Positions 1 to 25,882 of a stretch of DNA of 64,000 nucleotides are shown piece after piece (position 1 is the first letter of the stretch; every line of letters starts with the position of its first letter). The stretch comes from an uncultured Alphaproteobacteria bacterium. Its GTDB lineage: Bacteria > Electryoneota > RPQS01. The DNA lies in contig CAYORN010000002.1 in assembly GCA_964406405.1 (NCBI GenBank), forward strand, positions 248,025-312,024, written 5' to 3'. The position numbers and the translations under genes were made by a program. The notes below the pieces were generated by a model that made no database searches, was not told the origin of the DNA, and saw nothing but the letters and a program-made list of their open reading frames with translations.

Positions 1-923
1 TGCCGGTAGCCGAAGTCAATCGCGCGATAGAGTTTGAATTCGCGATTGGCCTGCGGCGGGCATTGCAGGATGTGCCGCACCGGATCGAACTCGCTGTACA
101 CCAGATCCTCGACGGCATCAAAGGAGATTTCCTGCTCCTGCTGCCATTTGGTGAGCGACAGGCCGGACATCGCGCCGCGCTTCCACTGCTCGTTGTTGCG
201 CTCGGGATGGACGGAGTAGTGGATGCGGTGAACTTGAAAGGATGAAGGATGAGGGATGAAGGATGAATCAACGTTTACAAGCTTCGCAAATAGATTCAGC
301 GCGCCGCCGCTTGATGAGACGCCGATGAATTGGCCGCCGCTGTCGAGCGCGGGTTTCAGGGCGGTCCAGATCTGCTCGTCGAAGGGTGTGAAGGCCATCT
401 CATCCCAGAAGACCGCGGTGGGTGAATACATGCGCGGGCCGTTGGGCGAGGCGGGTAGCGAGAGAATACGCGAGCCGATGCCAGCAAATTCAATTTCCTC
501 GGCGGAGTTGGTTTTGCGTTTCGGCTGCATGTATTCCGGTAAGTGATCGAGAATGAAGCGCGCGCGGTCGAGCAATTCTTCGGCACAGCGCTCGTTGCGT
601 GAGATGAACAGATAGAGTCCCGATTTCTGGAAGAGCGCGAGCCACAGAGTATAGGCAACGACGCTCCACGTCACCATCATCTGCCGCGACTTGGGGACGA
701 GCAAGAGCCGCTCCTTCTGCATCACCCAGAGGAATTCGCAGAGGTAATCGTAGTCGGGATATTGGCACACGCCGCGCTTCGGATCCTGAGTGTACACGTA
801 CTCAGTGAAGAACTGCCAGGGGTTTTCGGCGGCGGAGCAGAGGGATTGAAAGTCAGTACAATTCAAAGGATGAAGGCGGAAGGATGAAGGATGAATGAAA
901 GACGCTGTAGGGGCTGATTGCAT
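1..923 (-). CDS. Phage terminase large subunit-like protein (TerL), partial; C-terminus runs off the left edge
   Basis: Hand translation of the minus frame, which is absent from the ORF track because it has no stop inside the window. ATG at 921-923. Walker-A-like VPKSRQMMVTW and Walker-B-like VFWDEMAF. Downstream region HRIHYSVHPERNNEQW. Two in-frame GGATGAA arrays are embedded at 240-267 and 868-895. Confidence 0.5.
   Translation of the reverse strand, partial: MQSAPTASFIHPSSFRLHPLNCTDFQSLCSAAENPWQFFTEYVYTQDPKRGVCQYPDYDYLCEFLWVMQKERLLLVPKSRQMMVTWSVVAYTLWLALFQKSGLYLFISRNERCAEELLDRARFILDHLPEYMQPKRKTNSAEEIEFAGIGSRILSLPASPNGPRMYSPTAVFWDEMAFTPFDEQIWTALKPALDSGGQFIGVSSSGGALNLFAKLVNVDSSFIPHPSSFQVHRIHYSVHPERNNEQWKRGAMSGLSLTKWQQEQEISFDAVEDLVYSEFDPVRHILQCPPQANREFKLYRAIDFGYR
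240..267 (+). repeat. Heptamer tandem array GGATGAA-GGATGAG-GGATGAA-GGATGAA, preceded by AAA
   Basis: Read directly. It has the same unit order as the inverted copy at 61247-61274. Inside TerL it is translated antisense as SSFIPHPSSF. Confidence 0.8.
868..895 (+). repeat. Heptamer tandem array GGATGAA-GGCGGAA-GGATGAA-GGATGAA
   Basis: Read directly. Identical in structure to 16301-16328. It lies in the TerL N-terminal codons (SFIHPSSFRLHP). Confidence 0.8.
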
Positions 924-1050
924 CGCCCGCAGAAGTTTCAGAAATTTGTGACTGTGACCCGATGTCTATTGACTTTGCCAGATTGAGGCATTATTTTAGG
1001 TATCAGGTAAATTCGGTTGAATATGACGCAATTGGGAAGGAATTTATGCG

Positions 1051-2292
1051 ATGAAGGTCTTCAAGTACATATTGATTGTTGCGGCGCTCTGTGGATCGGC
1101 AGCGTGGGGGCAGGACAGCTTGCATGTGCGGACGTTGGGACACGTGCCCATGCTCAGCGACTGGTTTCACAATTTCGCAATTCAGGCCAGTTTCGCGTTT
1201 GTCGCGGAGGCTGAATTCGGTCTGCGGATTATTGATTTCTCGAATTCTGGCAGCCCGTTTGTGGCCGGTTCCTATAACGACGGGAGTCATATTCAGGCGG
1301 TCGCTGTCGTGGGAAACTACGCGTACGTCGTCAACGAGATGTCCCTCCAGGTGTTGAATGTTTCCAATGTTCAGAATCCGTTTGGGGTGGGAAGCTGCTT
1401 GCTTGACGCCGGTATTCCCTGGAATGTGAGCGTGGCGGGAAATTACGCGTATGTTTCTGATGTTCTCGGAGGATTCTCGATTGTGGACGTCACAAATCCT
1501 GCTTCACCGGCTACCGTGGGGTATTGGGATGGGGCGTGGGGGACTCATGATGTTAAAGTCGTTGGAACGTACGCGTACGTGGCGCACGACGAGGGTGGTC
1601 TTCGTGTTGTTGACGTCTCCGTTCCCTCGCAACCGGTACAGGTCGGTTACTGTCCGGCACACGTCTATTATGGCATTTATCGCGGCATTGACTCCGCGGT
1701 GGATGTGATGGGAAACTATGCGTACATAGCGGACATGTGGGGCTTACAAGTGGTGGACATTTCCAATCCGCAGGCACCGGTGGAGGTCTTTGACCTCACC
1801 GCAGAAAGCCAGACATTTGACGTGCTCACGGTGGACCACTACTTGTTCGTGGCAGATGGATGGGCGGGGCTGCGAATTATGGATATCACAATTCCAGCGA
1901 TACCGGTTCTCGTCGGTTATTATGACACGCCGGCCAACGCCTACCGGGTAGGGGCGCAGGGCTGTGTTGCCTGCGTGGACGACAGCTCGTCCCTTCGCTT
2001 TTACGATGTGACCTATTTCATTCCATGTGGACCGCCGTCCGCTCCGGCCGGACTTGCCATGCAGATTCCGCCGCGAAACAACAGGGTGAAGCTGCGCTGG
2101 TCGCCCGTCACGACGGACACCACGGGCGCACCCATTGAGGTTGATCGCTATGTCGTGTATGGCACGGCCCATCTGGATTCTATGCAATGGGATTCGATTG
2201 GAGTGCCCGTGCCGCCGGACACGACAGTATTTGTGGATTCGACGGCCACGGGAGAGCGCGGATTTTATCAGGTGCGGGCGGTGGTGGAGTAG
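1051..2292 (+). CDS. Secreted LVIVD-repeat beta-propeller protein with a C-terminal FN3-like region
   Basis: Signal peptide MKVFKYILIVAALCGSAAWG. Five or more repeats of the form GNYAYV..GLxVVDVSNPxxP, which is the LVIVD repeat pattern. Confidence 0.6.
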   Translation: MKVFKYILIVAALCGSAAWGQDSLHVRTLGHVPMLSDWFHNFAIQASFAFVAEAEFGLRIIDFSNSGSPFVAGSYNDGSHIQAVAVVGNYAYVVNEMSLQVLNVSNVQNPFGVGSCLLDAGIPWNVSVAGNYAYVSDVLGGFSIVDVTNPASPATVGYWDGAWGTHDVKVVGTYAYVAHDEGGLRVVDVSVPSQPVQVGYCPAHVYYGIYRGIDSAVDVMGNYAYIADMWGLQVVDISNPQAPVEVFDLTAESQTFDVLTVDHYLFVADGWAGLRIMDITIPAIPVLVGYYDTPANAYRVGAQGCVACVDDSSSLRFYDVTYFIPCGPPSAPAGLAMQIPPRNNRVKLRWSPVTTDTTGAPIEVDRYVVYGTAHLDSMQWDSIGVPVPPDTTVFVDSTATGERGFYQVRAVVE

Positions 2293-2315
2293 CGGCACGC
2301 GTTGCAGTTGTTGTT

Positions 2316-2351
2316 TTCCCCCCTATGATCCCCCCACGAAGTGGGGGGATG
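2316..2351 (+). terminator. Poly-C/poly-G hairpin CCCCCC-TATGAT-CCCCCCAC-GAA-GTGGGGGG followed by a T-rich run; member of a dispersed hairpin family
   Basis: Stem 2330-2337 pairs with 2341-2348. Sits 24 nt after the stop at 2292. A near-identical copy is at 13553-13592. Confidence 0.55.
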
Positions 2352-2352
2352 T

Positions 2353-2652
2353 TTATTTGGAGAAATGTTCCTGCAGAATCTTCAGCGCGTCTTCGACAGT
2401 CAGGGCGGAAGGATCGGAGGATTTGTCTTTCATCAGGTCAAGGAAGAGTTTCGCGGCGGAGGTGTTGCCGCCAATGGCCAAATCGTACAACGTGCGGAGC
2501 AGGTGCTGCACGGCATCGTCGGGGACAGGTTCGAAAGGAAGTTCGAGTTGCGGAGGTTTGGTTACGGGGCGAGTGCGGGAGCACTCGCCGCCGCGCGGAA
2601 GTTGTTGAGACTCGTTCGTGGCGGTCTCGATTTTCTGTCGTTTGGGAGTCAT
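2353..2652 (-). CDS. Small hypothetical protein, possibly an HTH/terminase-small-subunit-like protein
   Basis: 99 aa ORF. The segment LLRTLYDLAIGGNTSAAKLFLD resembles the HTH region of phage small terminase and sigma-like proteins. This is weak evidence. Confidence 0.3.
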   Translation of the reverse strand: MTPKRQKIETATNESQQLPRGGECSRTRPVTKPPQLELPFEPVPDDAVQHLLRTLYDLAIGGNTSAAKLFLDLMKDKSSDPSALTVEDALKILQEHFSK

Positions 2653-2675
2653 GAGATCGTATTAAGGATGAAATG

Positions 2676-2746
2676 GTAGGGCCGGCCGTTGGCCGGCTCT
2701 GTCATGTAATTGTGTCTTTTGGGAGCGGGCCGACGGCCCGCCCTAC
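2676..2746. repeat. GTAG-type REP doublet (REPIN): GTAGGGCCGGCCGTTGGCCGGCT plus the inverted partner GGGAGCGGGCCGACGGCCCGCCCTAC
   Basis: Each arm is internally palindromic. The arms are inverted relative to each other. The 5' GTAG is typical of REP elements. Confidence 0.5.
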
Positions 2747-2758
2747 AAGAGTTTCGTT

Positions 2759-3595
2759 TTACGCTTCGCGGGATTGGCGAAAGGTGGAGCGCAGCGACAT
2801 CGGCGTCAGAAACGGGGCGAGCGTTTGCCACGCCTGCTGCTCGTAGGTGCGTGAGAGCTGCTGCCATTCCTTGGCGCGGCCGGGAATGTCGGTGGTGGCG
2901 CGGCGGGACAACGCTTCCACGGCAAGCGCACGACAAATGATAGACAGCGCGAGTTCCGTGGCTCCGGTTTTCAAGCCCTGATTCGTAGAGTTGGCGTTGT
3001 AGTCCTCGGCCAGCGAGCGGAGAATGATGTCTTCGGCTTCGGTGATCGCTTCGTCAATCAGATCATCTTCGACGCTGCCCGCCGTGACCGTGTAATCCAC
3101 GATCACGCTGGCGCCGTCCGGAATCGCGCCGCCATCTTCGCGCGTGAGCAGGCCGGTCTGATCATTTAGAGAGTAATCCGTGTTGCGACCAAACAACGTG
3201 CAGAACGAATAGTAAACAATCACCGGCTGCATATCGGGAATCGCGCCGGTCGCCAGCCGCCGCACGCTGCCGCTGGTGTAGTCCACTTGATAGTCGAGCT
3301 CCTCGACAAAGATGGTGGTGAGCGCTTCGCTGAGCGTGACGACGACCGTGCCCGGGACAAGCTGCGGATGCTGTAGTGCTACGAACTCTTGCTCCTTCAG
3401 GGTCGCCGAGTTATCCATGAAGGGCGCGGTTTGCAAATCTTGTTTGACCGCGGCGGAATCGGCCACCAAATTGTGGTGCGGCAATTCAATGCTGGCGGTG
3501 CCGCTGAACGTTACGGGATGGTTGCGAATCACCAGCTCCGGAAAGGTGCTCGTGAGCAGGTGCGTTTTGACAAGAACGGGGGTGGTGAAGGACAT
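2759..3595 (-). CDS. Hypothetical acidic protein of the phage-like module, possibly scaffold or structural
   Basis: 278 aa ORF with acidic clusters (DDLIDEAITEAEDII). It is preceded by an octamer-array element. No family was recognised. Confidence 0.4.
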   Translation of the reverse strand: MSFTTPVLVKTHLLTSTFPELVIRNHPVTFSGTASIELPHHNLVADSAAVKQDLQTAPFMDNSATLKEQEFVALQHPQLVPGTVVVTLSEALTTIFVEELDYQVDYTSGSVRRLATGAIPDMQPVIVYYSFCTLFGRNTDYSLNDQTGLLTREDGGAIPDGASVIVDYTVTAGSVEDDLIDEAITEAEDIILRSLAEDYNANSTNQGLKTGATELALSIICRALAVEALSRRATTDIPGRAKEWQQLSRTYEQQAWQTLAPFLTPMSLRSTFRQSREA

Positions 3596-3610
3596 GGGAA
3601 GAGTGGTTTA

Positions 3611-3698
3611 GGAACAAGCCGACAAGCCAACAAACTGACAAGCCGACATGAAGAATCTGATGTCAGTATGTCAGCGTGTCGGATTGTCCGCTTGTGGG
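3611..3698. repeat. Inverted arrays of CTTGTCRG octamers (CYGACAAG x4, then NTGTCRG x5) forming a long imperfect palindrome
   Basis: Read directly. A paralogous element is at 8925-9004. Confidence 0.6.
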
Positions 3699-4064
3699 TT
3701 ATTCGCGGAAGAGTTGGAATTCGACGGTGGCAAAGAGCGTCGTGTTGTACGGTACGCTCTCGATTTGCAGGGCGGTGGTGCTGCCGTTCAGACGGACCTT
3801 GACCGTGAAATCACTGCCGGCATTCTGACAATAGACCGCCAGCGTATCGCCCATTTGAAAAGCGATTTCGTCAACGTCAAAGCGATACGTGGTGCCGTCC
3901 CACAGGTGCAGCGCGCTGATATAGCCGCGGCGCGAGAGCGGATACCCGTTGCCGGCCTGGCCGCCGGGACCGTTCAGGTAGAGCGATTGATTCGTCACCG
4001 CGCCGGAAAACGACATCATGTTCAGCGGTCGCGACGCGAAGAGGAAAGCGTGCGTGAGGTTCAT
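3699..4064 (-). CDS. Hypothetical protein of the phage-like module; start uncertain (ATG at 4064 or GTG at 4136)
   Basis: ORF 3699..4136. The internal start MNLTHAFLF at 4064 places the (GAGAYTT)3 array in the 5' UTR. Confidence 0.35.
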   Translation of the reverse strand: MNLTHAFLFASRPLNMMSFSGAVTNQSLYLNGPGGQAGNGYPLSRRGYISALHLWDGTTYRFDVDEIAFQMGDTLAVYCQNAGSDFTVKVRLNGSTTALQIESVPYNTTLFATVEFQLFRE

Positions 4065-4070
4065 GGGAAA

Positions 4071-4100
4071 GACCTGAGACTTGAGATTTGAGACTTGAAA
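4071..4100. repeat. Heptamer array ACCT-GAGACTT-GAGATTT-GAGACTT-GAAA
   Basis: Read directly. A second copy is at 14722-14746. Confidence 0.6.
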
Positions 4101-4329
4101 TGAAGAGCAGACAGAGATGCGAGCGCCGGAGGGCACGTGCGAAGCGTCTGGTTTGACTGGCTGGCGCCGAATGCTAAGTGCAGTGTCTTTCGAAAGCTAC
4201 TGCGTTGGAAGCCGACTGAACACGATGCCTGATGCCGAAAAAACACGGCGAAAACGCTTGCGAAAGGCCGCAATTTGACCTATTTTAACCCCTACAATCG
4301 CAGAGACTTTTGCTCGAAAGGAGCCGGAG

Positions 4330-6918
4330 ATGAAATCTTTTGGCGTTTTTTCAGCTTGTGTTCTGATGATCGTTTGTACTTTAGCGCCGGTCCGTGCGGA
4401 CCACGTGACGCGCGGCCCGATTTCGCCGCCGCGCGCGATCACCGGCATGGAACCGATGTTGCCCTCGCAAATCGGTCCCGACAACGGCAATCACCCCAAC
4501 GCGGGGCGCGCGCTGGATGAACCCGTCGGCGTCACGTATGCCGCAGGCACGTCATGGTACGACCTGGGGCATAACGGCAGTGCGGGGAAGATGATCGGCG
4601 TGGATGATTCGGGCTATGTGCATCTCGTGTGGACGAAGGGGATGGATAATGCGAATACGAGTCGCTACGTGTATTTCAACGTCTGGAATCCGAACACGCA
4701 GGCGATGGAATCCACCGTCGGAGAGCGCATTGACACGATCTTGTCCACGCGTTCGGGGTTCATCGCGCTGGCGGTGATGGGCGGCGGGTGGGCGTTTCCC
4801 GCATTTCACGAGATTCTGCCCAGCGGCGGGGGGTTGCCTCATGCCGCGGGCGGGATGAGCCTCATGGCGCGCACGCTGAATTTCGGTGTGACCGAGCCGG
4901 CGTGGCTCAATTCCCGGCAGTTGATCTGGCCCAAGATTGCCGTGGGGCGCGACAGCGTGGTGCACATGCTGACCACCGAGAATACTGTACCCTACGCGGT
5001 GTTTTACTCGCGGGGGCTGCCGAACTGGACGAGCCGCACGATCCAATGGCAAGACGTGGGCGGCGCGCAGTACGTGCAGATGGGATCAGCGGGCTATGTT
5101 TCGGCGGACGTTTGCGTGTCGCCAGTGTCGGATCGCATGGCCATGGCCTGGACCGATTATCGTCCGGGCAGCACGCAGAATTCGTACAATCAGGATGTCT
5201 TTTATCGCGTGTCGGAAGACGGCGGGCTGAACTGGAGTGACCTGCTCAACATCACGCAGTTCATGCCGGAAGACACGCACCGGGCGTTTGCCGATCTGAG
5301 CCTGCTGTTCGACGCGCAGGACGATCTGCACATTGCGTTCTCGACGTCGTGGTTTGACGAAACCAGCGGAACCAATTCAAACCAAAGCGGCCGCATCTGG
5401 CACTGGCGCGAAGGGTCGGACTCCATCTCCGCGTTGGGAGACGGGTGGGCAACCGGGCCGGCCATTCCCGGCAATTTTCTGCGCAATGCCTGCCGTCCGA
5501 GCCTGGCGCTGGATACGACGACAGGATATTTGTACTGTTCCTACCAGTGGTACGACCTGAACTCGTATTCGGTGAGCAACTACTACAACGCCGACGTGTG
5601 GATGACAGCTTCAACGGACAACGGCGCGCATTGGTCGGTGGGGCGCAATGTCACGACGACCACGCCGGTGTCGAATCCCTCGCCGGCGAGTGAGTGTTTG
5701 AGCGAGCGCGATATCACTCTGGCCGAACATGTGACCTACGCGAACGGCACGGGATACCTGCATTTGGAGTATGAACTGGATGCGGATGCGGGCGGATCAC
5801 CGCAGTTTGAAGGGGTGACCACCCTAAACACGGTGTATTACCAGCGGATTCCGGTGGACTCGATTTCGCAGACGCCGCTCATGCCGTCGTTTCCGTTTCA
5901 TCTCGGACCGCCCATTCCTCCTGACACGGGCCGCTGCTGCTATGGCAATCCGACGCAGCCGCAGTGCGCATGGCTGACGCTCGCAGCGTGCAACGGACTG
6001 AACGGAAGCTGGGACAGCACGCTGACCTGCGACACTCCGTGTCCGATTCCCGCGACGGGGCGTTGCTGTTACGGCGATTCGGCACAACCGGATTGCGCCA
6101 TGCTGATCCGTGTGGCCTGTCTCGCCTTGCAGGGAGGTTGGGACAGCACCTTAACCTGTGCCACACCGTGCCCGGTGTTCATCGAATGTTCCATCCAGGA
6201 TGAAGAAAACACGCATTGCAACCTGACCGGCGCGCCGATCCCCGATGGCGACCCAAACGGAGTGGATCTTGTCATCAACGTGCCGGTGCGCTATCACATC
6301 ACGGACCTGAATGTGGGCTTGGACATCAGCCACACGCAGTTGACGGATTTGGAAATCACGCTGCGATCACCGGGAGGAACGTCGGTCACGCTGATTTCGC
6401 ACCAGATCGTGGGCGCGAATTTCCGCTGCACGGTGTTTGATGATGAATCTCCGATCTGGATCTGGGATGGCACGCCACCGTACAACGGCAGCTTTAAGCC
6501 GGGGTTGCCGCTGAATGCGTTCGACGGACAAATGGCGCAGGGCAACTGGACGCTGCACGTGAGCGACACCGTGCAATTTGAACCGGGCACGCTCAATTGG
6601 GCCTGTCTTGAGTTCGCCTATGATTACATTGACGCGGCGGACGACGTTCCGCTGCCGGTGGAGTATGCGTTCTCTGCCTATCCGAATCCCTTCAATCCGG
6701 CGACCACATTGAGCTTCAGCGTCGCGGCGCCGGGTGATGTTCAATTGCAGCTCTTCAATCTCGCAGGGCAGCGGGTGCGCACGCTGGTGGATGGTCGCTA
6801 TGAAACCGGAACCTATCAGGTACAACTGGACGCGCGTGATCTGCCGTCGGGAGTTTATTTCTCACGCTTCACGGCCGGGACGTTTGTGAAGACGGAGAAG
6901 TTGGTATTGATGAAATAG
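4330..6918 (+). CDS. Secreted BNR/Asp-box repeat protein with a proprotein-convertase P-domain and a T9SS C-terminal sorting domain
   Basis: Signal peptide. SxDxGxTW-like motifs (STDNGAHW, SEDGGLNW). P-domain signature DLEITLRSPGGTSVTLISH...GNWTLHVSD. C-terminus YPNPFNPATTLSFSV...GVYFSRF...LVLMK. Shine-Dalgarno AGGAG upstream. Confidence 0.7.
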   Translation: MKSFGVFSACVLMIVCTLAPVRADHVTRGPISPPRAITGMEPMLPSQIGPDNGNHPNAGRALDEPVGVTYAAGTSWYDLGHNGSAGKMIGVDDSGYVHLVWTKGMDNANTSRYVYFNVWNPNTQAMESTVGERIDTILSTRSGFIALAVMGGGWAFPAFHEILPSGGGLPHAAGGMSLMARTLNFGVTEPAWLNSRQLIWPKIAVGRDSVVHMLTTENTVPYAVFYSRGLPNWTSRTIQWQDVGGAQYVQMGSAGYVSADVCVSPVSDRMAMAWTDYRPGSTQNSYNQDVFYRVSEDGGLNWSDLLNITQFMPEDTHRAFADLSLLFDAQDDLHIAFSTSWFDETSGTNSNQSGRIWHWREGSDSISALGDGWATGPAIPGNFLRNACRPSLALDTTTGYLYCSYQWYDLNSYSVSNYYNADVWMTASTDNGAHWSVGRNVTTTTPVSNPSPASECLSERDITLAEHVTYANGTGYLHLEYELDADAGGSPQFEGVTTLNTVYYQRIPVDSISQTPLMPSFPFHLGPPIPPDTGRCCYGNPTQPQCAWLTLAACNGLNGSWDSTLTCDTPCPIPATGRCCYGDSAQPDCAMLIRVACLALQGGWDSTLTCATPCPVFIECSIQDEENTHCNLTGAPIPDGDPNGVDLVINVPVRYHITDLNVGLDISHTQLTDLEITLRSPGGTSVTLISHQIVGANFRCTVFDDESPIWIWDGTPPYNGSFKPGLPLNAFDGQMAQGNWTLHVSDTVQFEPGTLNWACLEFAYDYIDAADDVPLPVEYAFSAYPNPFNPATTLSFSVAAPGDVQLQLFNLAGQRVRTLVDGRYETGTYQVQLDARDLPSGVYFSRFTAGTFVKTEKLVLMK

Positions 6919-6936
6919 ATTCCGGCCGGGTTACGT

Positions 6937-6962
6937 CCAACACCCCGGAGGGTGTTGGCTAG
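6937..6962 (+). terminator. Hairpin CCAACACCCC-GGAG-GGGTGTTGG after the stop at 6918
   Basis: Stem-loop read directly. Confidence 0.45.
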
Positions 6963-7114
6963 TCATGACCTGACTCGGCGATGTTCAAGAAGAGAGTGCG
7001 AGCGATTGCGCTCTCTTTGTTTTGCGCAGCGGCGGGCACAGAGACTGTGGCAAAGAAAGGCTGGAGGTAGGGTGAGCTTCCCTCCACACTCCGGCCCGCC
7101 GCGGCGCGCTTAGA

Positions 7115-8194
7115 TTAGTAATCGCTGATGGCGATGGCGTCGTCCACCATGATCGTGTAAACGGACTCTTTCGAGATCACGGCGGTTTCGAGTTTCTGCG
7201 AGATGACCTTCTCGGCTTCGATCAACAGCGGCTGAGCGATGGATTCGCGGATGGCGAAGCGATGATCGAGCGCGGCGAGCTTCGTGACCGTGGCGCCGGG
7301 GCACACGACGAGTTTGGTGTTGATCGGCAGGAAACTGCGATAGTCGCCCTGCATCGTGAAATGCGTGATCCCCTGGAACGCCTGCGGGTCCTGCAGCTGA
7401 TCAATGTTCAGGATTTTCTCGATGTCGGCTTTTGTCGCGAGCAGGTGCGTCATGTGCGCGGGCCCGCCGAACGAGAGCGCGAGATGGGTGAGATCAGAAT
7501 AGGCGAACGTGCCGGCTGTGCCGTTGAAGCAGTTCGTCGGCGCGGGTGAGGTGCCGTCACCGTTGGTGATGATGCCGTAGATCTCGTTGATCTCATCGAA
7601 CGCGATCTGCGCGCCGATCCACCACAGGAACACGCGGAATTCGGCGAGCTTCTGGTTTTTCAGAATGCGGTAAGAGAAATCGAACTGGCGGCCGCGATCC
7701 ACCATCGCCGCGTCCTTTTCGCGGTAGAGCAGCTGCACGACCGGATAGTTGCTGACTTCGTTGCGGCGGGCGAGCGGCTTCTTGGCATCGGCCGTTTTGA
7801 TATAGATCGGCTTCACCGAAGGCCCGCGTTCGGGAACTTGCGCGGCGACCAGTTCGCCGGGGTCCTGCACCATGCGATAGCCGCGTTGGATTTCGCGCGA
7901 GACATATTCCGGCGCGAGAATCAACCCGCCGCCGGTGAGGAATTGCTCGAGCGTCGTGGCGTTGCGTCCCGTGACGACGACATTGGCGAGATAGAGCTGC
8001 CGCTCGAAGGCGTCCAGCGCGCAGTCGAGCGCGCCGTCCGGCTTGCGCGGCGAGGGATCGAGTTCTTCGAGCAGTTCCGAGAGCGTGATCCCGCGCTCCT
8101 GCGCTTCGGCATAGAGCGCCAGATTGGCGGAGCGGGAATAGTCGGAGACTTTTTCGCGGAGGGCGTAGGAATTGGAAAGGTCGAGAGGAGTCAT
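7115..8194 (-). CDS. Putative HK97-fold major capsid-like protein (phage or encapsulin-like)
   Basis: 359 aa counted from the ATG at 8192-8194, with AAGGA upstream. Its size, its position next to a DUF2190-like gene and its lack of a signal peptide fit a capsid protein. The family call is inferred from context, not from a recognised motif. Confidence 0.35.
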   Translation of the reverse strand: MTPLDLSNSYALREKVSDYSRSANLALYAEAQERGITLSELLEELDPSPRKPDGALDCALDAFERQLYLANVVVTGRNATTLEQFLTGGGLILAPEYVSREIQRGYRMVQDPGELVAAQVPERGPSVKPIYIKTADAKKPLARRNEVSNYPVVQLLYREKDAAMVDRGRQFDFSYRILKNQKLAEFRVFLWWIGAQIAFDEINEIYGIITNGDGTSPAPTNCFNGTAGTFAYSDLTHLALSFGGPAHMTHLLATKADIEKILNIDQLQDPQAFQGITHFTMQGDYRSFLPINTKLVVCPGATVTKLAALDHRFAIRESIAQPLLIEAEKVISQKLETAVISKESVYTIMVDDAIAISDY

Positions 8195-8210
8195 GGGAAG
8201 TCCTTGAGGT

Positions 8211-8229
8211 AAAATTGAAAAATGAAAAG
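8211..8229. promoter_or_regulatory. Conserved upstream motif AAAATTGAAAAATGAAAAG (CTTTTCATTTTTCAATTTT on the gene strand)
   Basis: Shared with 9317-9343, upstream of the gene starting at 9313. Confidence 0.4.
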
Positions 8230-8381
8230 CGAAAGAACAAACATGAGATCCTTCCACCGAAGACGGTGTCAGGATGACAATGCTTTGATTTGTGGTTGTT
8301 GTAGTATGGGTCGGCTGCTCAATTCTCGTGCTCGTGTGCTTTGGATTAGCAGCCGACACCGCGACCGGGCGGAACAGAGAT

Positions 8382-8446
8382 TTCGGGCGGGTTCTTGGAC
8401 AGACGGTCGGAGACCGCCACTAGTATTTGTGGAACCCGCCTCGGCA
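8382..8446 (+). repeat. Solo copy of the IS200/RAYT-associated REPIN (TTCGGGCGGGTTCTTG...GGAACCCGCCTCGGC)
   Basis: Aligns end-to-end with 30226-30286, 30301-30363, 61049-61113 and the inverted copy at 29577-29637. Confidence 0.6.
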
Positions 8447-8456
8447 GAACTAAGCA

Positions 8457-8900
8457 TTATGCATCCAGCAACACGTCGCAGGTGGTGTCGGTCGTGTTGA
8501 CGGCAATCACGAGGCCGCGATGCTTGGTGCCGCCGGCCGGGACGTCAGCCACGGTGGATGCTTGGCGGACTTTGCCCGCGCCGTCCACTTCGACTTTTTG
8601 ACCGATGACCGGCGTGGTGGCGGCATACTTGAAGCGCGCGATACCGGTGACCTGCACGGTGCAGAGCGCGGGAATCGCGGTGCCGGCTTGCAGCTCTTCG
8701 GACACCTTGATGACTTTGCCGAGCAGGCGGCCACCGGCGGCGCCCATGCCGACTTTGTTGTTGCTGGTCATGGCGCAGGCGACCAAGCCGTTATCGAGAT
8801 CGGTGAGCGTGAAATCCTGATTGGCGCCGGCATCCACTTCAAACGTGAGCTGCAGATTGGCGCCGGCGCCGTCGTTGGTGACGGAATAGGTGGTGGACAT
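8457..8900 (-). CDS. Putative phage head decoration/cement protein (DUF2190-like, Ala/Gly-rich)
   Basis: 147 aa counted from MSTTYSV, with AAGGAAA upstream. Gly/Ala/Val-rich beta-type composition. Immediately upstream of the putative capsid gene, which is the lambda D-E order. Confidence 0.35.
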   Translation of the reverse strand: MSTTYSVTNDGAGANLQLTFEVDAGANQDFTLTDLDNGLVACAMTSNNKVGMGAAGGRLLGKVIKVSEELQAGTAIPALCTVQVTGIARFKYAATTPVIGQKVEVDGAGKVRQASTVADVPAGGTKHRGLVIAVNTTDTTCDVLLDA

Positions 8901-8924
8901 CTTTTCCTTTTGTGGTTGGTTATA

Positions 8925-9004
8925 TGACAGCGGACAACTGACAAGCCGACAAGCTGACAGAAGGAGAATCACATTTTATCTCAGCATGTCGGAATGTCGG
9001 TTTG
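8925..9004. repeat. Inverted arrays of CTTGTCRG octamers (TGACAG..CTGACAAGCCGACAAGCTGACAG ... CATGTCGGAATGTCGGTTTGTCAG)
   Basis: Read directly. Paralog of 3611-3698. Confidence 0.6.
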
Positions 9005-9313
9005 TCAGCTTCTTCTTACGGGTGTGATCTTGTACGTCTCGTTGAAGAGCTTGCGCGCCGCGCGCCGAGCAAGCAGGAGCGCATCGCCTTGCAGCGTGTA
9101 GGCAAGTTGCGGTTCGGAGCATTGCGGAATCGGTCCGGTGAGTTCCAAGAGCGCTTTCAATTCGCGCTGGAACTCTTGTTCGTAATGCGTCGCGCGCAGG
9201 GACAGGTCTTCATAGGTGTGTGCGGCTTTGCGGAGCTGGTCCAGGAGCTGATCGAGATTCAGATCGGCTGGGTTCTCGAGTTGCCCGATGAGGGGGGAGA
9301 TGGGGTTTGGCAT
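9005..9313 (-). CDS. Hypothetical small protein of the phage-like module
   Basis: ORF 9005..9490, trimmed to MPNPISPLIGQ at 9313, directly after the conserved AAAATTGAAAA motif. Confidence 0.3.
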   Translation of the reverse strand: MPNPISPLIGQLENPADLNLDQLLDQLRKAAHTYEDLSLRATHYEQEFQRELKALLELTGPIPQCSEPQLAYTLQGDALLLARRAARKLFNETYKITPVRRS

Positions 9314-9696
9314 GGGGAAAATTGAAAATCGAAAAATGAAAAGTAGGGGGGAAGCGACGAAGATGCGGTGGGGGAAGACGCTCCTGTTCAAAAGTGACGG
9401 GCATAATGTACTATTTGACAAACGAAAAGTCAAGAACATTTCTAATAAAATGTACATCTGATTGTGTTTTCTGATATTTAATTTGAACACACGGACAAGT
9501 GCGTCCAGTTACAAATTCTGTTTGAACAAATGAATCCGTGCTTAGCGAAGGAAAGCACACTCTGGGTCAGTAAAATGAAACATGCCGTGGCGAGAGGCTG
9601 AATTGCCTCGACCCAAATGCGTGATTGGTTTGAAAACTATGCCAATCTCTTTGTTTGGTCAATTCAGATTTGAATGCGATCCGGCCGGACAAAATG

Positions 9697-9728
9697 AAAA
9701 GCGGTGACCATTCGGCCACCGCTTTCAG
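9697..9728 (-). terminator. Rho-independent terminator (AGCGGTG-GCCGAATG-GTCACCGCT-TTTCATTTT on the minus strand)
   Basis: Hairpin plus T-run just 3' of the minus gene ending at 9753. Confidence 0.6.
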
Positions 9729-9752
9729 CATTCAAACCAGTGTATCAGCGTG

Positions 9753-10781
9753 TCATTTGATCAGGGTCATTCGCTTCACGTTGGTGTACCCGTTTGTCTG
9801 TAAACGGTACAGATAGGTCCCGCTGGAGAACGTGTTGGCATTGAAGACGACACTGTTGCGTCCGGCGCTGCGGAAGCCCTTGACGAGCGTGGCAACCTCT
9901 TCTCCCAGCAGGTTGTACACCTTCAGCGAAACGTCGCCGCTCGCGAGGAGATTGAAGTTGATTTGCGTTTCCGGATTGAACGGATTGGGATAGTTTTGCT
10001 CAAGGTAGTATCCTCGAGCGACTGGGCCTCGCTGAGGATCAGCGTTGGTGCCAGCGGTGGTGATGACGATCTCACCTTGAGTGAAGTTCGGGTTTTGCTC
10101 ATCTTCATAGGAAGTGATTTCGGCTCCGATCGGCACGTCCGCGCTAAGCCACATATAGGAGTATTGTTCGATCGTATCCGCGGGCCAGCCTGGAATTGAT
10201 CTAATCATGAACTCATGGCTCCGCGTCCGCAACACCGGCCAGGAACCGAAGGGAGTCACCAGGGTCCCCCAGCCATCTACGGTTTTCAGGACCGAGTCCA
10301 CCACGGTGATTTCGAACCCGGGCTGGGGTTCAAAGGTGAAGCGCCACACAGATGTCCAACTGGCGAGATAGGTGAGCGGAAGGGGGAAAAACAACGCTTC
10401 CTGATCCGGCACAATGATCATTTCCTCTCCCTCTTCGAAGCTCACTGCACCCTGAAAGAAGACGCCGTTCGCTGCCAGTCGCAAATAAGCGAAACCGCTG
10501 TCGGCGGACATGAAGATACAGTGCGTGGCGGAAGGGAAACTGTCAGCGTACGAGGTCGTGGCAGGATCCACCCATTGCTCGACGCTTTCGTCCCAAGTGC
10601 GATCCGAGATCGACCACGTCTGGTTGGCGCCATCCGCACCAACAGCGACCACTGTGCTTTCGGCTTTTTGGTCCCCGAACGTAGAGCCAAAGGGCGGGAA
10701 ATCGCCCAGCGTAATCGTGATTTGGGCGAAGGCCGGAAGGTGCAGGCATAGAAGGACAAGAACCCAGCAAGAGTATCGCAT
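9753..10781 (-). CDS. Secreted T9SS C-terminal-sorting-domain cargo protein
   Basis: GGAGG Shine-Dalgarno and ATG at 10781. Signal peptide MRYSCWVLVLLCLHLPAFAQ. C-terminus YPNPFNPETQINFNL...GTYLYRLQ...MTLIK. Confidence 0.65.
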   Translation of the reverse strand: MRYSCWVLVLLCLHLPAFAQITITLGDFPPFGSTFGDQKAESTVVAVGADGANQTWSISDRTWDESVEQWVDPATTSYADSFPSATHCIFMSADSGFAYLRLAANGVFFQGAVSFEEGEEMIIVPDQEALFFPLPLTYLASWTSVWRFTFEPQPGFEITVVDSVLKTVDGWGTLVTPFGSWPVLRTRSHEFMIRSIPGWPADTIEQYSYMWLSADVPIGAEITSYEDEQNPNFTQGEIVITTAGTNADPQRGPVARGYYLEQNYPNPFNPETQINFNLLASGDVSLKVYNLLGEEVATLVKGFRSAGRNSVVFNANTFSSGTYLYRLQTNGYTNVKRMTLIK

Positions 10782-11122
10782 GATAATGACCTCCATTTTT
10801 TTTGTTAGAGGGTATCTGATTGAAAAATACGACAAATCTACCGAATTGTCAAGTAGGTTCAGACTTTGCATGAATTTAGAATACTTGTTGTTCGGCTGTT
10901 GAATGGCGCGGGTCTTTGAGGAGCTGTATCTTGATGTGCCCTCCGCCGGGGCGGCAGAGACTTTGGTGGCGCGGCCGCTGCGGGACCGGTCAGAGCCGTT
11001 GAAGGGTGGTTGATCTCACGGCCTATGAAGTGCATCAGTCACGGCCCTTCTTGCAGTTTGGCGAGAGTTTTGCTATGTTTAATTCTACCAGTTGAGATCT
11101 AAGGCGAGCGGAGAGTTTAGTC

Positions 11123-13369
11123 ATGTACATTATTGGAATCGTGTTGGTGATGCTGCTCGGGGGAGGAGCCGGGTTTGCGCAAGATCCGATTTCCGAAATC
11201 CAAAACCCGAATCAGCCCTCCCTTTCCCCCCCCGTAAACGGAGGGGAAGCAAGAGTGGTGCGGGCGGTGCGGACGGCGTCACCGAAGATTGATGGGATCT
11301 TTGACGTGGAGTGGCTGAAGGCGGCGCTTGCGGATCACTTCGTGCAAAAAAGACCTGTGGAGGGCGCGCCTGAATCCCTGCCCACGCGGGTTTTTGTGCT
11401 CTATGACAATGACGCGCTGAATGTCTGCTTCGTGTGCAATGACCATCCGGATTCGATCAGCGCGCGCGTGCTGCGGCGGGACAATGATGATAACTGCGAT
11501 GTGGTGTACATCGCTTTGGATTCGTTTCATGATCGGCGCAATGCCTACTATTTCGGACTGACGGCGGCCGGCGGGCAGGTGGATGGCACCTTTTCCAACG
11601 AGAGCGTGACCGACGGCTCGTGGGACGGAATCTGGGAGTCAGCGGTGGGGAGAACCGACAGCGGTTGGGTGGCGGAGATGCGGATTCCGTTCAGCAGCTT
11701 CCGGCACGGCGGCGCGCGTGCGGACGGCTGGGGATTTCAACTCGAACGGGACGTAAACCGCCGCCAGGAAGAAACGTACTGGCAGCCGGTGTCGGTGCAA
11801 CGCGGCGTGCGGGTGGGAGAGTTTGGAATCCTGGCGGGGCTGGAGAACATCGGCTCGGCGCGGCATCTCGAAGTGCTGCCGCACGCGGTGGCGAGGTTCG
11901 ATGCTCCTGCGGACAGCAACTGGAAGTCGCGGAGCGAATGGAAGGATCTCGGGTTTTACGCGAAGTACGTTCCGGCGGCCTCGTGGACGGTGGACTTTGC
12001 CTATCAGCCGGACTTCGCGCAGGTGGACGTGGATTACGAAGTGATTCAGCTCTCCGATTATCCGGTGTTTTATCCGGAGAAGCGGCCTTTTTTTCTCGAA
12101 GTGAACAACTTCTTTGACACCGCGCCGATTTCGCTCCTGTACACGCGCAGGGTCACTGATCCGGATTTTGGGGGGAGAATTTACGGGCAGTCGGAGAAGT
12201 TTCGGGGGATGGTGTTAGGGGGGCAGAATCGGAATGAACATGGAATTCGTGAGTATGTGACTGCAGGTCGTGCGGTGCTCAATCTGGGTAAACAGCACCA
12301 ACTTGGGCTTACTGGAACAAGTCTATACCGACCGAATGCAGTGCCGTTGGGCGATGCATTTCGCGCGTACACGGGCGGATTGGATGCACGGATCCGGTGG
12401 GGGGCGGAGAATCGGTGGTCATTGTCTGCGGCGGGTGTAAAGCGAGACCGTGTAACGATCGCGGGGGCAGACAAGCTCAATGATCAGCCCTTCGAATTCC
12501 GCAATAGCCTGTATCTGAATCTGCATCCGCTGCCAGTGAAGATGAGCCTGACGGACAACTATCGCGGGCAGGATTACAACATCAATGACTTGGGCTGGAC
12601 GGATTTTTCGAACACGATTGAGCACTACATCTGGTTCGGGAACAACTGGCAGCCGGGAAAGATGCTGGTTCAGCAGTGGGGCCTGGATTTGAACGGCTGG
12701 CAGCGCAACCTGCCCGACGGCACGTTTCCCGAAGGCGGTGGCAATGTCGGGACGTGGTTTCGGACGAAAGAGAATTTTGAATACGGCGGCGGCTGGCAAT
12801 GGGGACTCTTGAGCCGCCGGAATTATGAGACCAACGATAAGTACGTCGTGGGCGAATTCCGGGACAACTTCTTCGAAGATTACGGACGGTTCGTGCTGGA
12901 GCCGCATTATTACCAAGCCGGGTGGGCGTGGTTCGAGACTGACGACCGGACGTGGCTCACGTACTTGAGCGAGGGCACTTACGGCCTGTTCCGCGAAGGG
13001 CACAAGTGGTCGTGGAATCAGGCGGTGACGGTGAAGCCGCGCGCCAATCTGGAAACGACTTTTGCGTCGAACTGGACACAGGTGTGGGGAGTCAGCGATT
13101 ATGATAATTATCAGCCGACGACGTTTCGCGTGTGGCGCTGGGTCACGCGCTATTCGCCGACGTTGAATTTGTCTTTGCGCGGGACGTTACAGTGGATCGA
13201 GGAAGACAAGCAGTTGCTGACCAATCTGTTGCTGGCGTGGAACTGGCATCCGGGAAGCTGGTTCTACGCGGTGTATGACGAGGGTCGCATGACCAATCCG
13301 CTGGCATACAAAACCGAAGGGGACCGGACGGTGCGAGTGAAGGCGACGTATTTTTTTACGGTGAAATAG
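11123..13369 (+). CDS. DUF5916 / carbohydrate-binding family 9-like outer-membrane-associated protein
   Basis: Signal peptide. The N-terminal CBM9-like signature is IDG..D..W...........P..G.P......V..LYD...L.....C.D........R.RRD.....D.V.I.LD.F.D.RN, followed by a long Trp/Tyr-rich beta region. Confidence 0.6.
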   Translation: MYIIGIVLVMLLGGGAGFAQDPISEIQNPNQPSLSPPVNGGEARVVRAVRTASPKIDGIFDVEWLKAALADHFVQKRPVEGAPESLPTRVFVLYDNDALNVCFVCNDHPDSISARVLRRDNDDNCDVVYIALDSFHDRRNAYYFGLTAAGGQVDGTFSNESVTDGSWDGIWESAVGRTDSGWVAEMRIPFSSFRHGGARADGWGFQLERDVNRRQEETYWQPVSVQRGVRVGEFGILAGLENIGSARHLEVLPHAVARFDAPADSNWKSRSEWKDLGFYAKYVPAASWTVDFAYQPDFAQVDVDYEVIQLSDYPVFYPEKRPFFLEVNNFFDTAPISLLYTRRVTDPDFGGRIYGQSEKFRGMVLGGQNRNEHGIREYVTAGRAVLNLGKQHQLGLTGTSLYRPNAVPLGDAFRAYTGGLDARIRWGAENRWSLSAAGVKRDRVTIAGADKLNDQPFEFRNSLYLNLHPLPVKMSLTDNYRGQDYNINDLGWTDFSNTIEHYIWFGNNWQPGKMLVQQWGLDLNGWQRNLPDGTFPEGGGNVGTWFRTKENFEYGGGWQWGLLSRRNYETNDKYVVGEFRDNFFEDYGRFVLEPHYYQAGWAWFETDDRTWLTYLSEGTYGLFREGHKWSWNQAVTVKPRANLETTFASNWTQVWGVSDYDNYQPTTFRVWRWVTRYSPTLNLSLRGTLQWIEEDKQLLTNLLLAWNWHPGSWFYAVYDEGRMTNPLAYKTEGDRTVRVKATYFFTVK
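11215..11246 (+). repeat. Poly-C hairpin element CCCTCC-CTTTCCCCCCCCC-GTAAAC-GGAGGGG inside the coding sequence (encodes SLSPPVNGGE)
   Basis: Same element family as 42213-42238 (intergenic) and 63921-63952 (also coding, PPVNGGG). Confidence 0.55.
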
Positions 13370-13552
13370 CGAAATTGCAAATCCCAAACTGGAAATCCAA
13401 AATTCCAATCAGAACGAACCCCCGAGAGGTTCTGGACGCCCGCGCTTCGAGGACTTGCGCGGTGTCCAGAATGACAATTGAAGAAACGCCGGGCTGGCTT
13501 ATGTACATCGTGCACTTGTTGTGTCTATGCATGATCCGCCTCGGCGAGACGA

Positions 13553-13592
13553 TTTCCCCCCTATGATCCCCCCACCAAGTGGGGGGATTGAT
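13553..13592 (+). repeat. Poly-C/poly-G hairpin TTTCCCCCCTATGATCCCCCCACCAAGTGGGGGGAT (copy of 2316-2351)
   Basis: About 36 of 40 nt are identical to the 2316 copy. Confidence 0.6.
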
Positions 13593-13660
13593 TTTGTGGC
13601 AACATTCGCGGGTTTCTGTCGCTCGTATGAGGAGAAACCGAAGGGAAAGGAGACCTCAGG

Positions 13661-14716
13661 ATGAGACTTAGCATCTTATTCTTTATAGCTTTGCTGGCGG
13701 CCATGGTCGCGCAGGCGGAGACACGGGTCAGCGGCAACGTGTCCGGGACGTGGAGCGAAGAGGGCAGCCCGTATGTCGTGGAAGGGAACATCACGGTGCC
13801 TGCGGGCGAGAAGCTCCTGATCAAGCCGAAAGTGGTGGTACGGTTTGACGGGCCTTACTCCTTCACGGTCAACGGCGAGCTGCGGACACATGAAAGCAAG
13901 TACAAATTGGGCGGTATCAAGCTCGAGATCGGCAACGGGAAGAAGGACAAAGAGACCATGATCCTGTTCACGTCCGATGCGGACGGTACCGGCTGGGGCG
14001 GAATCCGGTTCGTGAAAGCCGATCGGGATTGTGAGCTCACGAATTGCCGGATTGAGCAAGCGGACGTGGCCGGCGACGGCGGGGGCGTGTATTGCGAAGG
14101 CTCGGACGTGGCGATTACAAACTGCGAAATCGAGAACTGCGCGGCGACCGGCTCGGGCGGGGCGATTGCGTGCGTGGGTGGCGACGTGGCGATCACGAAC
14201 TGCGACATCACTCACAACTCCGCGGGCGGCATGGGCGGCGCGATCTACGGCCATGGCGCGAGCATTGCCGTGACGAATTGCGCGGTGAGTGAGAACCGCG
14301 GCGGCGGCATCGCGTGCGTCTCCAAGTCTGAAGTAGCGGTAACCAATGTTGAAATTACCAAGAACACCGGGGCGACGCTGGGCGGCGGCCTCTATTTGAA
14401 ACAGAGCGAAGGCGCGCTGACGAATGTCGAGATCACCGGCAATGAGAACGGCGGCGTGGCGGCGCTGGACAAGTCTGAGCTGGTCGTGACTAACGGCGAC
14501 ATCACCGGGAATCTGGGCAGCGATCGCGCCAACGGAATTCTGTGCGTCAACAGCGAGATGGTGTTTACGAACGGCGAGATCAGCGGCGGGGCAGAGCATG
14601 CCGTTGGATGCTTTGAGAATTCATCGGCCGTGATCACCAACGCGGATCTCTCCAACAGCCATGGCTTGGACAAGGACGAGAGTTCGGAAGTGACGGCGGT
14701 GAACGTGGCGTACTAA
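13661..14716 (+). CDS. Secreted right-handed parallel beta-helix repeat protein
   Basis: Signal peptide MRLSILFFIALLAAMVAQA. Repeats of the form NCxIxxNxAxGxGGAI (ITNCEIENCAATGSGGAIACVGG...). AGGAGA Shine-Dalgarno. Confidence 0.6.
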   Translation: MRLSILFFIALLAAMVAQAETRVSGNVSGTWSEEGSPYVVEGNITVPAGEKLLIKPKVVVRFDGPYSFTVNGELRTHESKYKLGGIKLEIGNGKKDKETMILFTSDADGTGWGGIRFVKADRDCELTNCRIEQADVAGDGGGVYCEGSDVAITNCEIENCAATGSGGAIACVGGDVAITNCDITHNSAGGMGGAIYGHGASIAVTNCAVSENRGGGIACVSKSEVAVTNVEITKNTGATLGGGLYLKQSEGALTNVEITGNENGGVAALDKSELVVTNGDITGNLGSDRANGILCVNSEMVFTNGEISGGAEHAVGCFENSSAVITNADLSNSHGLDKDESSEVTAVNVAY

Positions 14717-25573: not shown

Positions 25574-25882
25574 TTACGAGCGGCTGATCCACGCGAACAC
25601 TGCCGCGACGCCGGAGAGCACAATGCCCGTCATCACGCCCACCGCCCAGCGGCGAAAGGATTCGAGTGCAACGAGTCGTTCGTGATGCGCCGAGACCGAT
25701 GAATCCACGGTGCGGGAAAGCGCGGAGAGCTCCTTGCGCATACCGATGATTTGCTCGGTGAGATCGCCGACGCGCGCTATGCGGATTGGGCTGTATGGAT
25801 AGCCGACTTCTCTCAGGAGTGTCGCCAGGATATTGCTCATGAATTCGGACATGCTGTGGGGATGGAGCATCTGCATACCCAA
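25574..25882 (-). CDS. Small protein with a C-terminal TM helix (XhlA/holin-associated-like); start uncertain
   Basis: Coiled region followed by WAVGVMTGIVLSGVAAVFAWI. Confidence 0.3.
   Translation of the reverse strand: MGMQMLHPHSMSEFMSNILATLLREVGYPYSPIRIARVGDLTEQIIGMRKELSALSRTVDSSVSAHHERLVALESFRRWAVGVMTGIVLSGVAAVFAWISRS

Follow-up and report, generated by a model that had tools for sequence, protein, structure and literature searches.

Experimentally supported gene transfer agents (GTAs) are few and come mainly from the Alphaproteobacteria, where RcGTA, an ICTV viriform, combines its head with a complete siphovirus-type tail (tube, tape measure and baseplate) and has been shown to package host DNA at random. 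The capsid-forming phage-inducible chromosomal islands (cf-PICIs), in turn, are mobile, sit at att sites and encode an integrase, regulators and replication functions. One of very few GTAs described outside the Alphaproteobacteria is FpGTA of Faecalibacterium prausnitzii, whose ~10-kb operon encodes, in this order, the small and large terminase subunits (TerS and TerL), the portal, a scaffold and the major capsid protein (MCP). Its 40-nm, tail-less-looking particles, for which the proteome has been shown, carry 8.4-8.9 kb of host DNA, and its lysis and fibre genes lie in a second operon (PMC12946183). Here we describe a cassette of phage-like genes at the left end of a 64-kb stretch of DNA (the window; positions 248,025 to 312,024 of contig CAYORN010000002.1) from an uncultured bacterium of the GTDB lineage Electryoneota. 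With moderate confidence, we read this cassette as a domesticated, GTA-like element for head formation and DNA packaging, that is, a phage-derived "viriform" fixed in the chromosome. It is probably a GTA-type particle previously undescribed in these Calditrichota-like sediment bacteria; a literature search on GTAs or phage-like elements in Calditrichota, Caldithrix, KSB1 and Electryoneota gave nothing relevant.

Genes for virion structure and packaging that derive from caudoviricetes (TerL, portal and an HK97-fold MCP) here lie in a cellular chromosome, with cellular flanks. In the window, seven minus-strand genes make up the run between positions 1 and 9313, which is broken up by two plus-strand genes for secreted proteins (Table 1). 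The leftmost gene encodes the ATPase part of TerL. Its presence on the minus strand, proposed in the initial annotation, is borne out by the open reading frame (ORF) of 307 codons, by the two motifs listed in Table 1 and by matches to TerL families of PHROG at 1e-15 to 7e-11 (TerL matches in PHROG reach 2e-25; relatives have 440-475 residues in full); the Pfam Terminase_6N-type score of 17.3 lies below the cut-off of 22. Across 30 aligned sequences (alignment A1), the P-loop, Walker B and RNase-H-like nuclease residues (K59-S-R-Q, W154-D-E, D290, D349 and D432) are invariant. Assembly breaks fall inside TerL in two metagenome-assembled genomes (MAGs; L047/L068 and L067/L069, with a ~95-codon contig overlap in one), and the window too starts inside this gene; strain variation or a repeat at TerL may be responsible.

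The MCP matches phrog_3922 (major head protein) at 3e-36. Its start was set at ATG 8194 rather than GTG 8359 because the homologues have 354-360 residues. An AlphaFold (AF2) model based on 50 homologues (pLDDT 73.5, pTM 0.72; low confidence in the E-loop region, residues 125-166) gave 98 Foldseek matches in the PDB at E<=1e-3, headed by HK97 gp5 and encapsulins (probability 1.0, E ~1e-6). The HK97 fold that the initial annotation had suggested looking for is therefore present in the predicted structure, which identifies the product as an HK97-fold major capsid protein.

The remaining genes of the run are less easily named. p147, which matches phrog_4588 ("virion structural protein") at 3e-11, is probably a capsid cement or decoration protein. 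It had been called DUF2190-like, and what stands of this is a weak family resemblance: 8 of 23 homologues match PF09956 (Phage_cement_2, formerly DUF2190), with a best E of 0.0048 and all below threshold. The window protein itself has no PF09956 match at E<=5, the Pfam gathering threshold is not reached and membership is thus not established; a tblastn search of GenBank phages with p147 also found no match. The protein first noted simply as acidic is p278. It matches phrog_807 and phrog_20240 at 1e-8 and, over the repeat region only and below the cut-off, NF052337 (tail_tube_6XGR, an Ig-decorated tail-tube protein) at 3e-13. Its motif DxLIxxAITEAEDxI and gene position suggest a head-completion or adaptor protein; a single-sequence AlphaFold model (pLDDT 37.5) was not used. 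p121 has no match in Pfam, PHROG, NCBIfam or PDB-sequence profile searches, and PDB-sequence profile searches with the alignments of p278, p121, p147 and the MCP gave nothing significant. For p99, the proposed helix-turn-helix (HTH) motif finds no support; a weak match to PF18932 (DUF5681; 0.051 for the window protein and 2.5e-4 for its homologue in locus L005) makes a DUF5681-like, small-terminase-like protein possible. sm102 could be a scaffold or a regulator. Like p121 and p278, both p99 and sm102 prove to be genuine conserved gene families. One further component is displaced: a minus-strand homologue of the small protein with one transmembrane (TM) segment that follows portal and C6 in relatives lies 16 kb from the window cassette and would be holin-like. 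The displaced gene is flanked by two paralogous genes for secreted proteins of ~325 residues (24484-25476 and 26011-26985, both plus strand), which are similar over their full length.

Table 1. Features of the cassette and the genes inserted in it, in window coordinates (aa, amino acids; MFE, minimum free energy; T9SS, type IX secretion system)
Feature	Position	Strand	Remarks
TerL, N-terminal 307 aa	1..923 (frame 3-923)	-	ATG at 923; continues beyond the left edge of the window; KSRQMMVT and FWDEMAF present
LVIVD beta-propeller	1051-2292	+	Pfam LVIVD 3e-52; signal peptide, no T9SS C-terminal domain; inserted cellular gene
GC-rich hairpin	2328-2350		lies where the p99 and LVIVD genes converge; resembles a plus-strand terminator
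p99	2353-2652	-	small protein just upstream of TerL; clade A and LCP-89-type loci; family HMM match 8e-23; position conserved
p278	2759-3595	-	acidic, pI 4.6; two beta repeats (DYxVDYxxGxIRR) and C-terminal helical domain; family in 57 loci
Octamer hairpin	3613-3696	-	long, bulged; TGTCGGCT-type octamers; between p121 and p278; MFE -45.6 kcal/mol, z -6.8
p121	3699-4064	-	conserved small beta-rich protein, always directly before p278; family in 53 loci
Secreted BNR-like/proprotein-convertase P-domain protein	4330-6918	+	Pfam P_proprotein 2e-12, Por_Secre_tail 1e-8; T9SS C-terminal sorting domain
MCP	7115-8194	-	359 aa, HK97 fold (predicted); helical N-terminal region of ~110 aa, delta-domain-like
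Leader motif TTTTCATTTTTCAATTTT	8211-8228	-	~17 nt before the MCP ATG
p147	8457-8900	-	147 aa, Gly/Ala-rich, highly conserved; mean column identity 74%
Octamer-repeat hairpin	8940-9006	-	between sm102 and p147; MFE -33.3 kcal/mol, z -3.3
sm102	9005-9313	-	102 aa, helical; opens the cassette in clade A; no database match
Leader motif TTTTCATTTTTCGATTTT(CAATTTT)	9318-9342	-	two overlapping copies, directly before the sm102 ATG
Cassette sigma-70-type promoter	9405-9433	-	TTGACT (-35, 9433-9428), 17 nt, TACATT (-10, 9410-9405)
AT-rich upstream region	9434-9750	-	blocks shared with L002; degenerate TTGAACA...GTTCAA element
Coiled-coil and C-terminal TM protein, displaced	25574-25882	-	tblastn 61% to an 80-aa protein of L094; start codon uncertain

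A scan with a TerL profile, using one genome per species, found 319 loci, of which the best 80 were examined by tblastn, ORF clustering and family hidden Markov models (HMMs); core-gene counts cover the 65 highest-ranking loci outside the planctomycetes. Of these 65, 59 have three or more core genes, and in 56 of the 59 they are collinear on one strand, in the order (sm102 or C25)-p147-MCP-p121-p278-(p99)-TerL-portal-C6-small one-TM protein. The 59 species-level genomes that carry the cassette are labelled Calditrichota, Ca. Electryoneota, KSB1 or LCP-89 at NCBI. The MCP has more than 120 homologue clusters (58-97% identity) on cellular contigs of up to 4.5 Mb; its named homologues, like those of TerL, come from Calditrichota, KSB1, LCP-89 and Ca. 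Electryonea. The continuation to the left of the window that the initial annotation had proposed to look for is seen in the closest relative, L005, as a full TerL and a portal gene, and in this relative the cassette genes span ~20 kb including cellular inserts. The portal of the closest relatives matches phrog_3753 at 5e-30 to 8e-35, and C6 is phrog_16951 (1e-20). In relatives from Clostridia, C6 sits between portal and MCP, and that copy is weakly prohead-protease-like (phrog_18299 7e-5, NF045541 0.03). Beyond the core, the operon of the Caldithrix-type clade continues with C14, a ConA-like lectin protein (phrog_10356, "virion structural"), a small TM protein and an Amidase_2 endolysin (phrog_822, 5e-37); another clade has a divergent XRE-family regulator upstream of the cassette, and no regulator was recognised at the window copy. 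The flanks are ordinary chromosomal genes. For the families across L007-L071, median pairwise identity is 62% for the MCP and 59% for p147, versus 42% for TerL and 47% for the portal; a capsid that is more conserved than TerL and portal is the opposite of the usual pattern in phage families.

Fifteen of the loci examined (L072-L086, Planctomycetes/Phycisphaerae) match TerL only in its C-terminal nuclease half, at 32-41%. They have recurrent neighbour clusters of their own (C16, C23, C28 and C31) and may represent another conserved phage-like cassette.

Of the systems described so far, FpGTA is the closest in gene content and apparent taillessness. It shares with the present cassette a compact operon, small conserved proteins, an apparently tail-less or podovirus-like make-up and presence throughout its lineage, and its separate block of fibre and holin-endolysin genes is comparable to that of the Caldithrix-type clade. 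The host phylum differs, however, and the FpGTA MCP (RCH50849.1) is annotated as a member of the N4-gp56 family. The window MCP and its homologues match no NCBIfam model, TIGR04387 included, and therefore do not belong to the FpGTA family. RcGTA is similar in that an HK97-fold head and terminase cluster is fixed in the chromosome with no integration or replication genes, is under purifying selection and widely conserved in its clade, and a few of its components are encoded elsewhere. Yet there is no detectable link at the level of sequence families, TerL and portal are preceded by the MCP block here, and no counterpart of the RcGTA tail was found; the present cassette falls outside the RcGTA family. 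Moreover, the packaging of host DNA, which has been shown for both of these agents, is a prediction for the present cassette.

The nearest sequence relatives outside the clade are cassettes of Acutalibacteraceae. They were reached through GenBank phages, where the cassette has only five matches, all in unverified human-gut records, two of which (MT835508 and MT835952) were examined. The proteins of one of the two belong to gut Acutalibacteraceae, on chromosomal contigs of up to 2.4 Mb, and the cassette in MT835508 is small and flanked by cellular ABC-transporter genes. By tblastn the MCPs are ~28% identical; the family HMMs match the MCP at 1e-52 to 6e-56, the portal at 7e-11 to 9e-20, C6 at 2e-19 to 6e-22 and TerL at 5e-09 to 4e-15, the Acutalibacteraceae TerL being of the PBSX family, unlike that of the present cassette. 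A comparison by hhalign of the p121 and p278 profiles with the tested small downstream proteins of the Acutalibacteraceae cassette showed no homology. The Acutalibacteraceae genes run TerS-TerL-portal-phrog_16951-MCP, with TerL-portal-C6-MCP in the canonical phage order, whereas the MCP block comes first here. A leading MCP block is therefore a derived character shared by the copies of the present cassette.

Comparison of the window with L002/L005 gives ratios of nonsynonymous to synonymous substitution rates (dN/dS) of 0.08 for the MCP, 0.13 for TerL, 0.17 for p278, 0.18 for p147, 0.22 for p121 and 0.29 for sm102. The dS values of the cassette (0.5-1.3) are similar to those of two cellular genes in the flanks, DUF5916 (1.14) and C18 (1.11), and between the window and L002 the MCP is 89% identical versus 43-65% for neighbouring cellular proteins. 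The surroundings are shared as well: T9SS-372, DUF5916 and C18 flank the cassette in the window and in L002/L003; in both L093 and L094 the cassette lies between PRTase-RDD-lactamase_B-PPIase-response regulator and MGMT-PMT-pyruvate kinase; and L087 and L095 share an internal insertion of PadR and MacB. Together, these comparisons indicate that the cassette is under purifying selection and is inherited vertically within clades.

These data bear directly on the possibility of an ordinary defective prophage remnant, in which the head genes of a once-complete temperate phage would be decaying in place with morons inserted among them. A remnant would have the partial set of virion genes and the cellular interruptions that are seen, and the contigs of several MAGs do break in or beside the cassette. 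Nevertheless, the same ~8 genes are intact and collinear in nearly all of the species-level loci, the TerL catalytic residues are invariant, the MCP is better conserved than the cellular proteins next to it, and the promoter is kept in 14 species. Decay, as implied when the initial annotation spoke of a prophage remnant, is contradicted by the low dN/dS values and by intact genes in ~60 species. A defective prophage remnant is thus very unlikely, having been largely refuted by the conservation data.

The initial annotation also described the cassette as interleaved with genes of the T9SS, but this interleaving does not define the system. Pfam agrees with the naming of the two inserted genes as an LVIVD propeller and a P-domain T9SS gene, but in most of the 59 related loci the cassette is compact, a single same-strand operon with no cellular genes inside, and the insertions depend on the lineage. 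The LVIVD gene is missing from the corresponding junction in most relatives. Between MCP and p121 there is one T9SS gene here, three in L002, PadR and MacB in L087/L095 and nothing in most loci; L093 has a Dam-like methylase and small ORFs in its cassette. More than 1 kb is inserted at 3 of 43 MCP/p121 junctions, 4 of 55 p278/TerL junctions, 6 of 45 TerL/portal junctions and 1 of 36 portal/C6 junctions. In contrast, p147/MCP (0 of 39) and p121/p278 (0 of 46) are never split by more than 1 kb, and the latter has no insertion at any of the 46. No cassette genes are lost where cellular genes interrupt it. In the window, the operon is split into the blocks p147-MCP, p121-p278-p99, TerL and, by extension, portal onwards, a split that would be tolerable for an element that need no longer package its own contiguous genome. 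Five genes with a T9SS C-terminal domain (CTD) lie in the window, ~1 per 13 kb, and Por_Secre_tail is also found on the protein encoded at 9753-10871; adjacency to the cassette is therefore expected by chance and needs no functional explanation. The comparison of loci identifies the T9SS/LVIVD "mosaic" as lineage-specific secondary insertions of abundant cellular genes.

It follows that little speaks for a capsid-based compartment functionally tied to embedded T9SS cargo genes, another of the three options first put forward. In several lineages T9SS-CTD or LVIVD genes do occur within the cassette or next to it, but in most loci the cassette contains none, the inserted genes differ (T9SS cargo, PadR and MacB, methylase) and T9SS-CTD genes have the density given above regardless of the cassette. 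In addition, TerL with its nuclease residues and the portal are conserved, which points to DNA rather than protein as the cargo. We regard such a compartment as scarcely credible. Of the three options, a domesticated or GTA-like module derived from a phage head and packaging system fits best; the T9SS link and the element of decay do not stand.

Two inserted or neighbouring genes deserve mention in their own right. In L093, the insertion (10702-13783) consists of a Dam-like methyltransferase gene (MethyltransfD12) and four small same-strand ORFs between TerL and portal. A signal-peptide beta-helix protein (POMP-repeat-like, cluster C18), encoded at 13661-14716 on the plus strand of the window, turns up again next to the cassette of distant lineages and, in one case, within it. 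Further copies are found in L002, L020, L047, L050, L052 (a MAG labelled C. abyssi that carries the cassette), L054 and L065, and the Caldithrix copy has a T9SS CTD. This recurrence could be due to chance, beta-helix secreted proteins being common, or could reflect a tailspike-like partner.

The main rival is a capsid-forming satellite, which, like a cf-PICI, would make small heads of its own, package itself, use helper-phage tails and spread horizontally. The gene content is that of such a satellite: MCP, portal, TerL, a possible TerS, protease/scaffold-like and connector-like proteins and no tail genes, much as the head-only cf-PICIs have TerS/TerL, portal, protease, MCP and connectors. XRE and HTH+M78 (ImmA-like) regulators adjoin some copies, and the relationships of the cassettes conflict in part with the host labels, one MAG having two divergent copies. 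However, no integrase, primase/replication or excision gene is present in any annotated context, and neither replication functions nor mobility of the cf-PICI kind were seen there. Seven contexts were annotated with Pfam and contain no integrase, replication, tail-tube or tape-measure gene, a result that covers these contexts and not a search of all loci with dedicated models; ORF clustering also found no recurrent flanking cluster that could be an integrase, replication or tail module. There is no tRNA gene in the window, so that tRNA-linked integration is unsupported. Flanks are syntenic across species, and the dS of the cassette equals that of neighbouring cellular genes. Up to ~8 kb of cellular genes are found at single junctions, and one component lies 16 kb off in the window; this splitting and displacement would defeat self-packaging in a small head. 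Finally, the cassette is almost absent from viral-contig collections, with one 8.4-kb fragment among the 2.9 million contigs of IMG/VR. A satellite is unlikely on this evidence, though still worth considering.

The same observations weigh against an inducible podovirus, small, temperate and still autonomous, with genes for replication and integration that have diverged beyond recognition. In the Caldithrix-type clade, the cassette together with the ConA-like lectin (fibre-like), the small TM protein and the Amidase_2 endolysin does form an 11-12 kb unit for virion and lysis, and many small ORFs have no annotation. Yet no conserved genes of the size of a polymerase, primase or integrase are found in the unit or its flanks, the position is fixed and insertions are shared, and IMG/VR holds nothing beyond the one fragment, with no circular or terminally redundant genome. 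The chance that the cassette is such a virus seems very slight.

If the cassette is instead a GTA-like element, it could work as follows. The operon would be driven by the sigma-70 promoter of host type that precedes its first gene, with the divergent XRE-family regulator acting there in one clade. The MCP, through its helical, delta-like N-terminal region, would assemble on the portal with the help of C6 (scaffold/prohead-protease-like), and p147 would cement the capsid shell. TerL would then pump DNA into the head, assisted in some clades by the DUF5681-like small subunit, and p121 and p278, the latter with its helical, adaptor-like C-terminus, would complete the portal vertex. The small holin-like one-TM protein would release the particles, and in the Caldithrix-type clade the neighbouring Amidase_2 endolysin and ConA-like lectin protein would supply lysis and adsorption. 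The packaged DNA would most likely be host DNA, because replication functions are absent and the element of the window's lineage lies in too many separate pieces to enter a head as a whole. The conserved gene order, the homologies of MCP, TerL and portal, the MCP fold, the selection on the genes and their chromosomal context are what the comparisons show; the production of particles, the kind of DNA packaged and its transfer to recipients, as well as the roles of p121, p278, sm102, C6 and the one-TM protein, are inferred.

Several points weigh against this reading. Although MCP, TerL, portal and p278 recover the same clades, Ca. Hatepunaea (Electryoneota) has a cassette that clusters with that of Caldithrix (MCP 78%) and not with that of Ca. 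Electryonea (63%), and two copies in the same MAG (L038 and L051, CAZCEM01) are only 42% identical in TerL. The Hatepunaea grouping and the double copy mean ancient paralogy, horizontal transfer or bin chimerism; for the two copies of CAZCEM01 themselves, the choice is between true paralogues and a chimeric bin. The deep history is accordingly not cleanly vertical, as far as the trees and labels allow it to be read: the grouping and the NCBI phylum labels disagree between clades, these labels being record titles, several of which are clearly unreliable. The window's contig could not be extended leftwards, exact look-ups of the window MCP and p278 having returned only Logan contigs of 1.3 kb and 6 kb, and its portal and C6 are therefore inferred from relatives (L005/L006). 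The absence of an integrase rests on the seven annotated contexts and the clustering rather than on every locus. No adsorption or tail device was recognised in the window's clade, and the small terminase is doubtful, two clades having no recognisable gene for it. With these points in mind, we propose only tentatively a more far-reaching version, namely that the cassette is an ancient GTA-type viriform of the Fibrobacteres-Chlorobi-Bacteroidetes (FCB) group that predates the split of the Calditrichota-, Electryoneota-, LCP-89- and KSB1-like lineages, tail-less or very short-tailed with an HK97-type head, functional though broken up, and packaging host DNA.

The cassette also has cis-elements of its own. 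The AT-rich tract at 9314-9750 contains the sigma-70-type promoter, and 14 species of clade A have kept a promoter of the form TTGACA-17-TGTATATT with little or no change, although the sm102 of relatives is only ~32-56% identical to the window protein. As the initial annotation had noticed, octamer arrays stand before two of the genes and the capsid and small genes share a leader motif, and both are above expectation. The T-rich motif, TTTTCATTTTTCNATTTT, lies directly before the ATGs of MCP and sm102 (4 matches versus 0.09 expected). The octamers are specific to the locus, with 17 matches versus 6.6 expected and 12 of the 17 in or beside the cassette, and the arrays form the arms of long bulged hairpins 3' of the sm102 and p121 stop codons. 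L002 has not kept the sequence of the hairpin between p121 and p278 and has a diverged hairpin at the position equivalent to that between sm102 and p147. The arrays were thus rejected as a conserved RNA element, since their sequences are not conserved even in this 89% relative and only stable intergenic hairpins recur (62-73% of spacers with z<-2, by crude mononucleotide shuffles). GC-rich palindromes resembling repetitive extragenic palindromes, of the type GTAGGGCGGG...CCCGCCCTAC, lie in cassette spacers at different junctions in the window (2690-2745) and in L002 (9885-9990).

Further upstream, clade A has a TTGAACA-N3-(T)GTTCAA element ~60 nt from the -35 sequence (columns 101-118 of alignment A7; for example, L047 3982-3997). 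In some species the element contains GAAC-N4-GTTC, which is like a Cheo or LexA box; in the window it is degenerate. A LexA/Cheo-box reading was tried and set aside, because the element is only half conserved, lies that far upstream of the -35 sequence and has no intact copy in the window, and no claim is made for it.

In annotation, loci of this kind are easily mistaken for prophages or viral contigs. From compact to split, the cassettes form a natural series of one element, which reveals the pairs that must stay together: p147-MCP, p121-p278 and, with one exception, portal-C6. If the GTA-like reading is true, the cassette likely represents an independent domestication of a GTA in ~60 species of abundant sediment phyla, and it would suggest that capsids mediate gene exchange in anaerobic sediment communities, which are poorly known. 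Should the tentative proposal of an ancient FCB-group viriform hold, it would mean an independent origin of GTAs in a superphylum without known GTAs, which may be testable in cultured Caldithrix.

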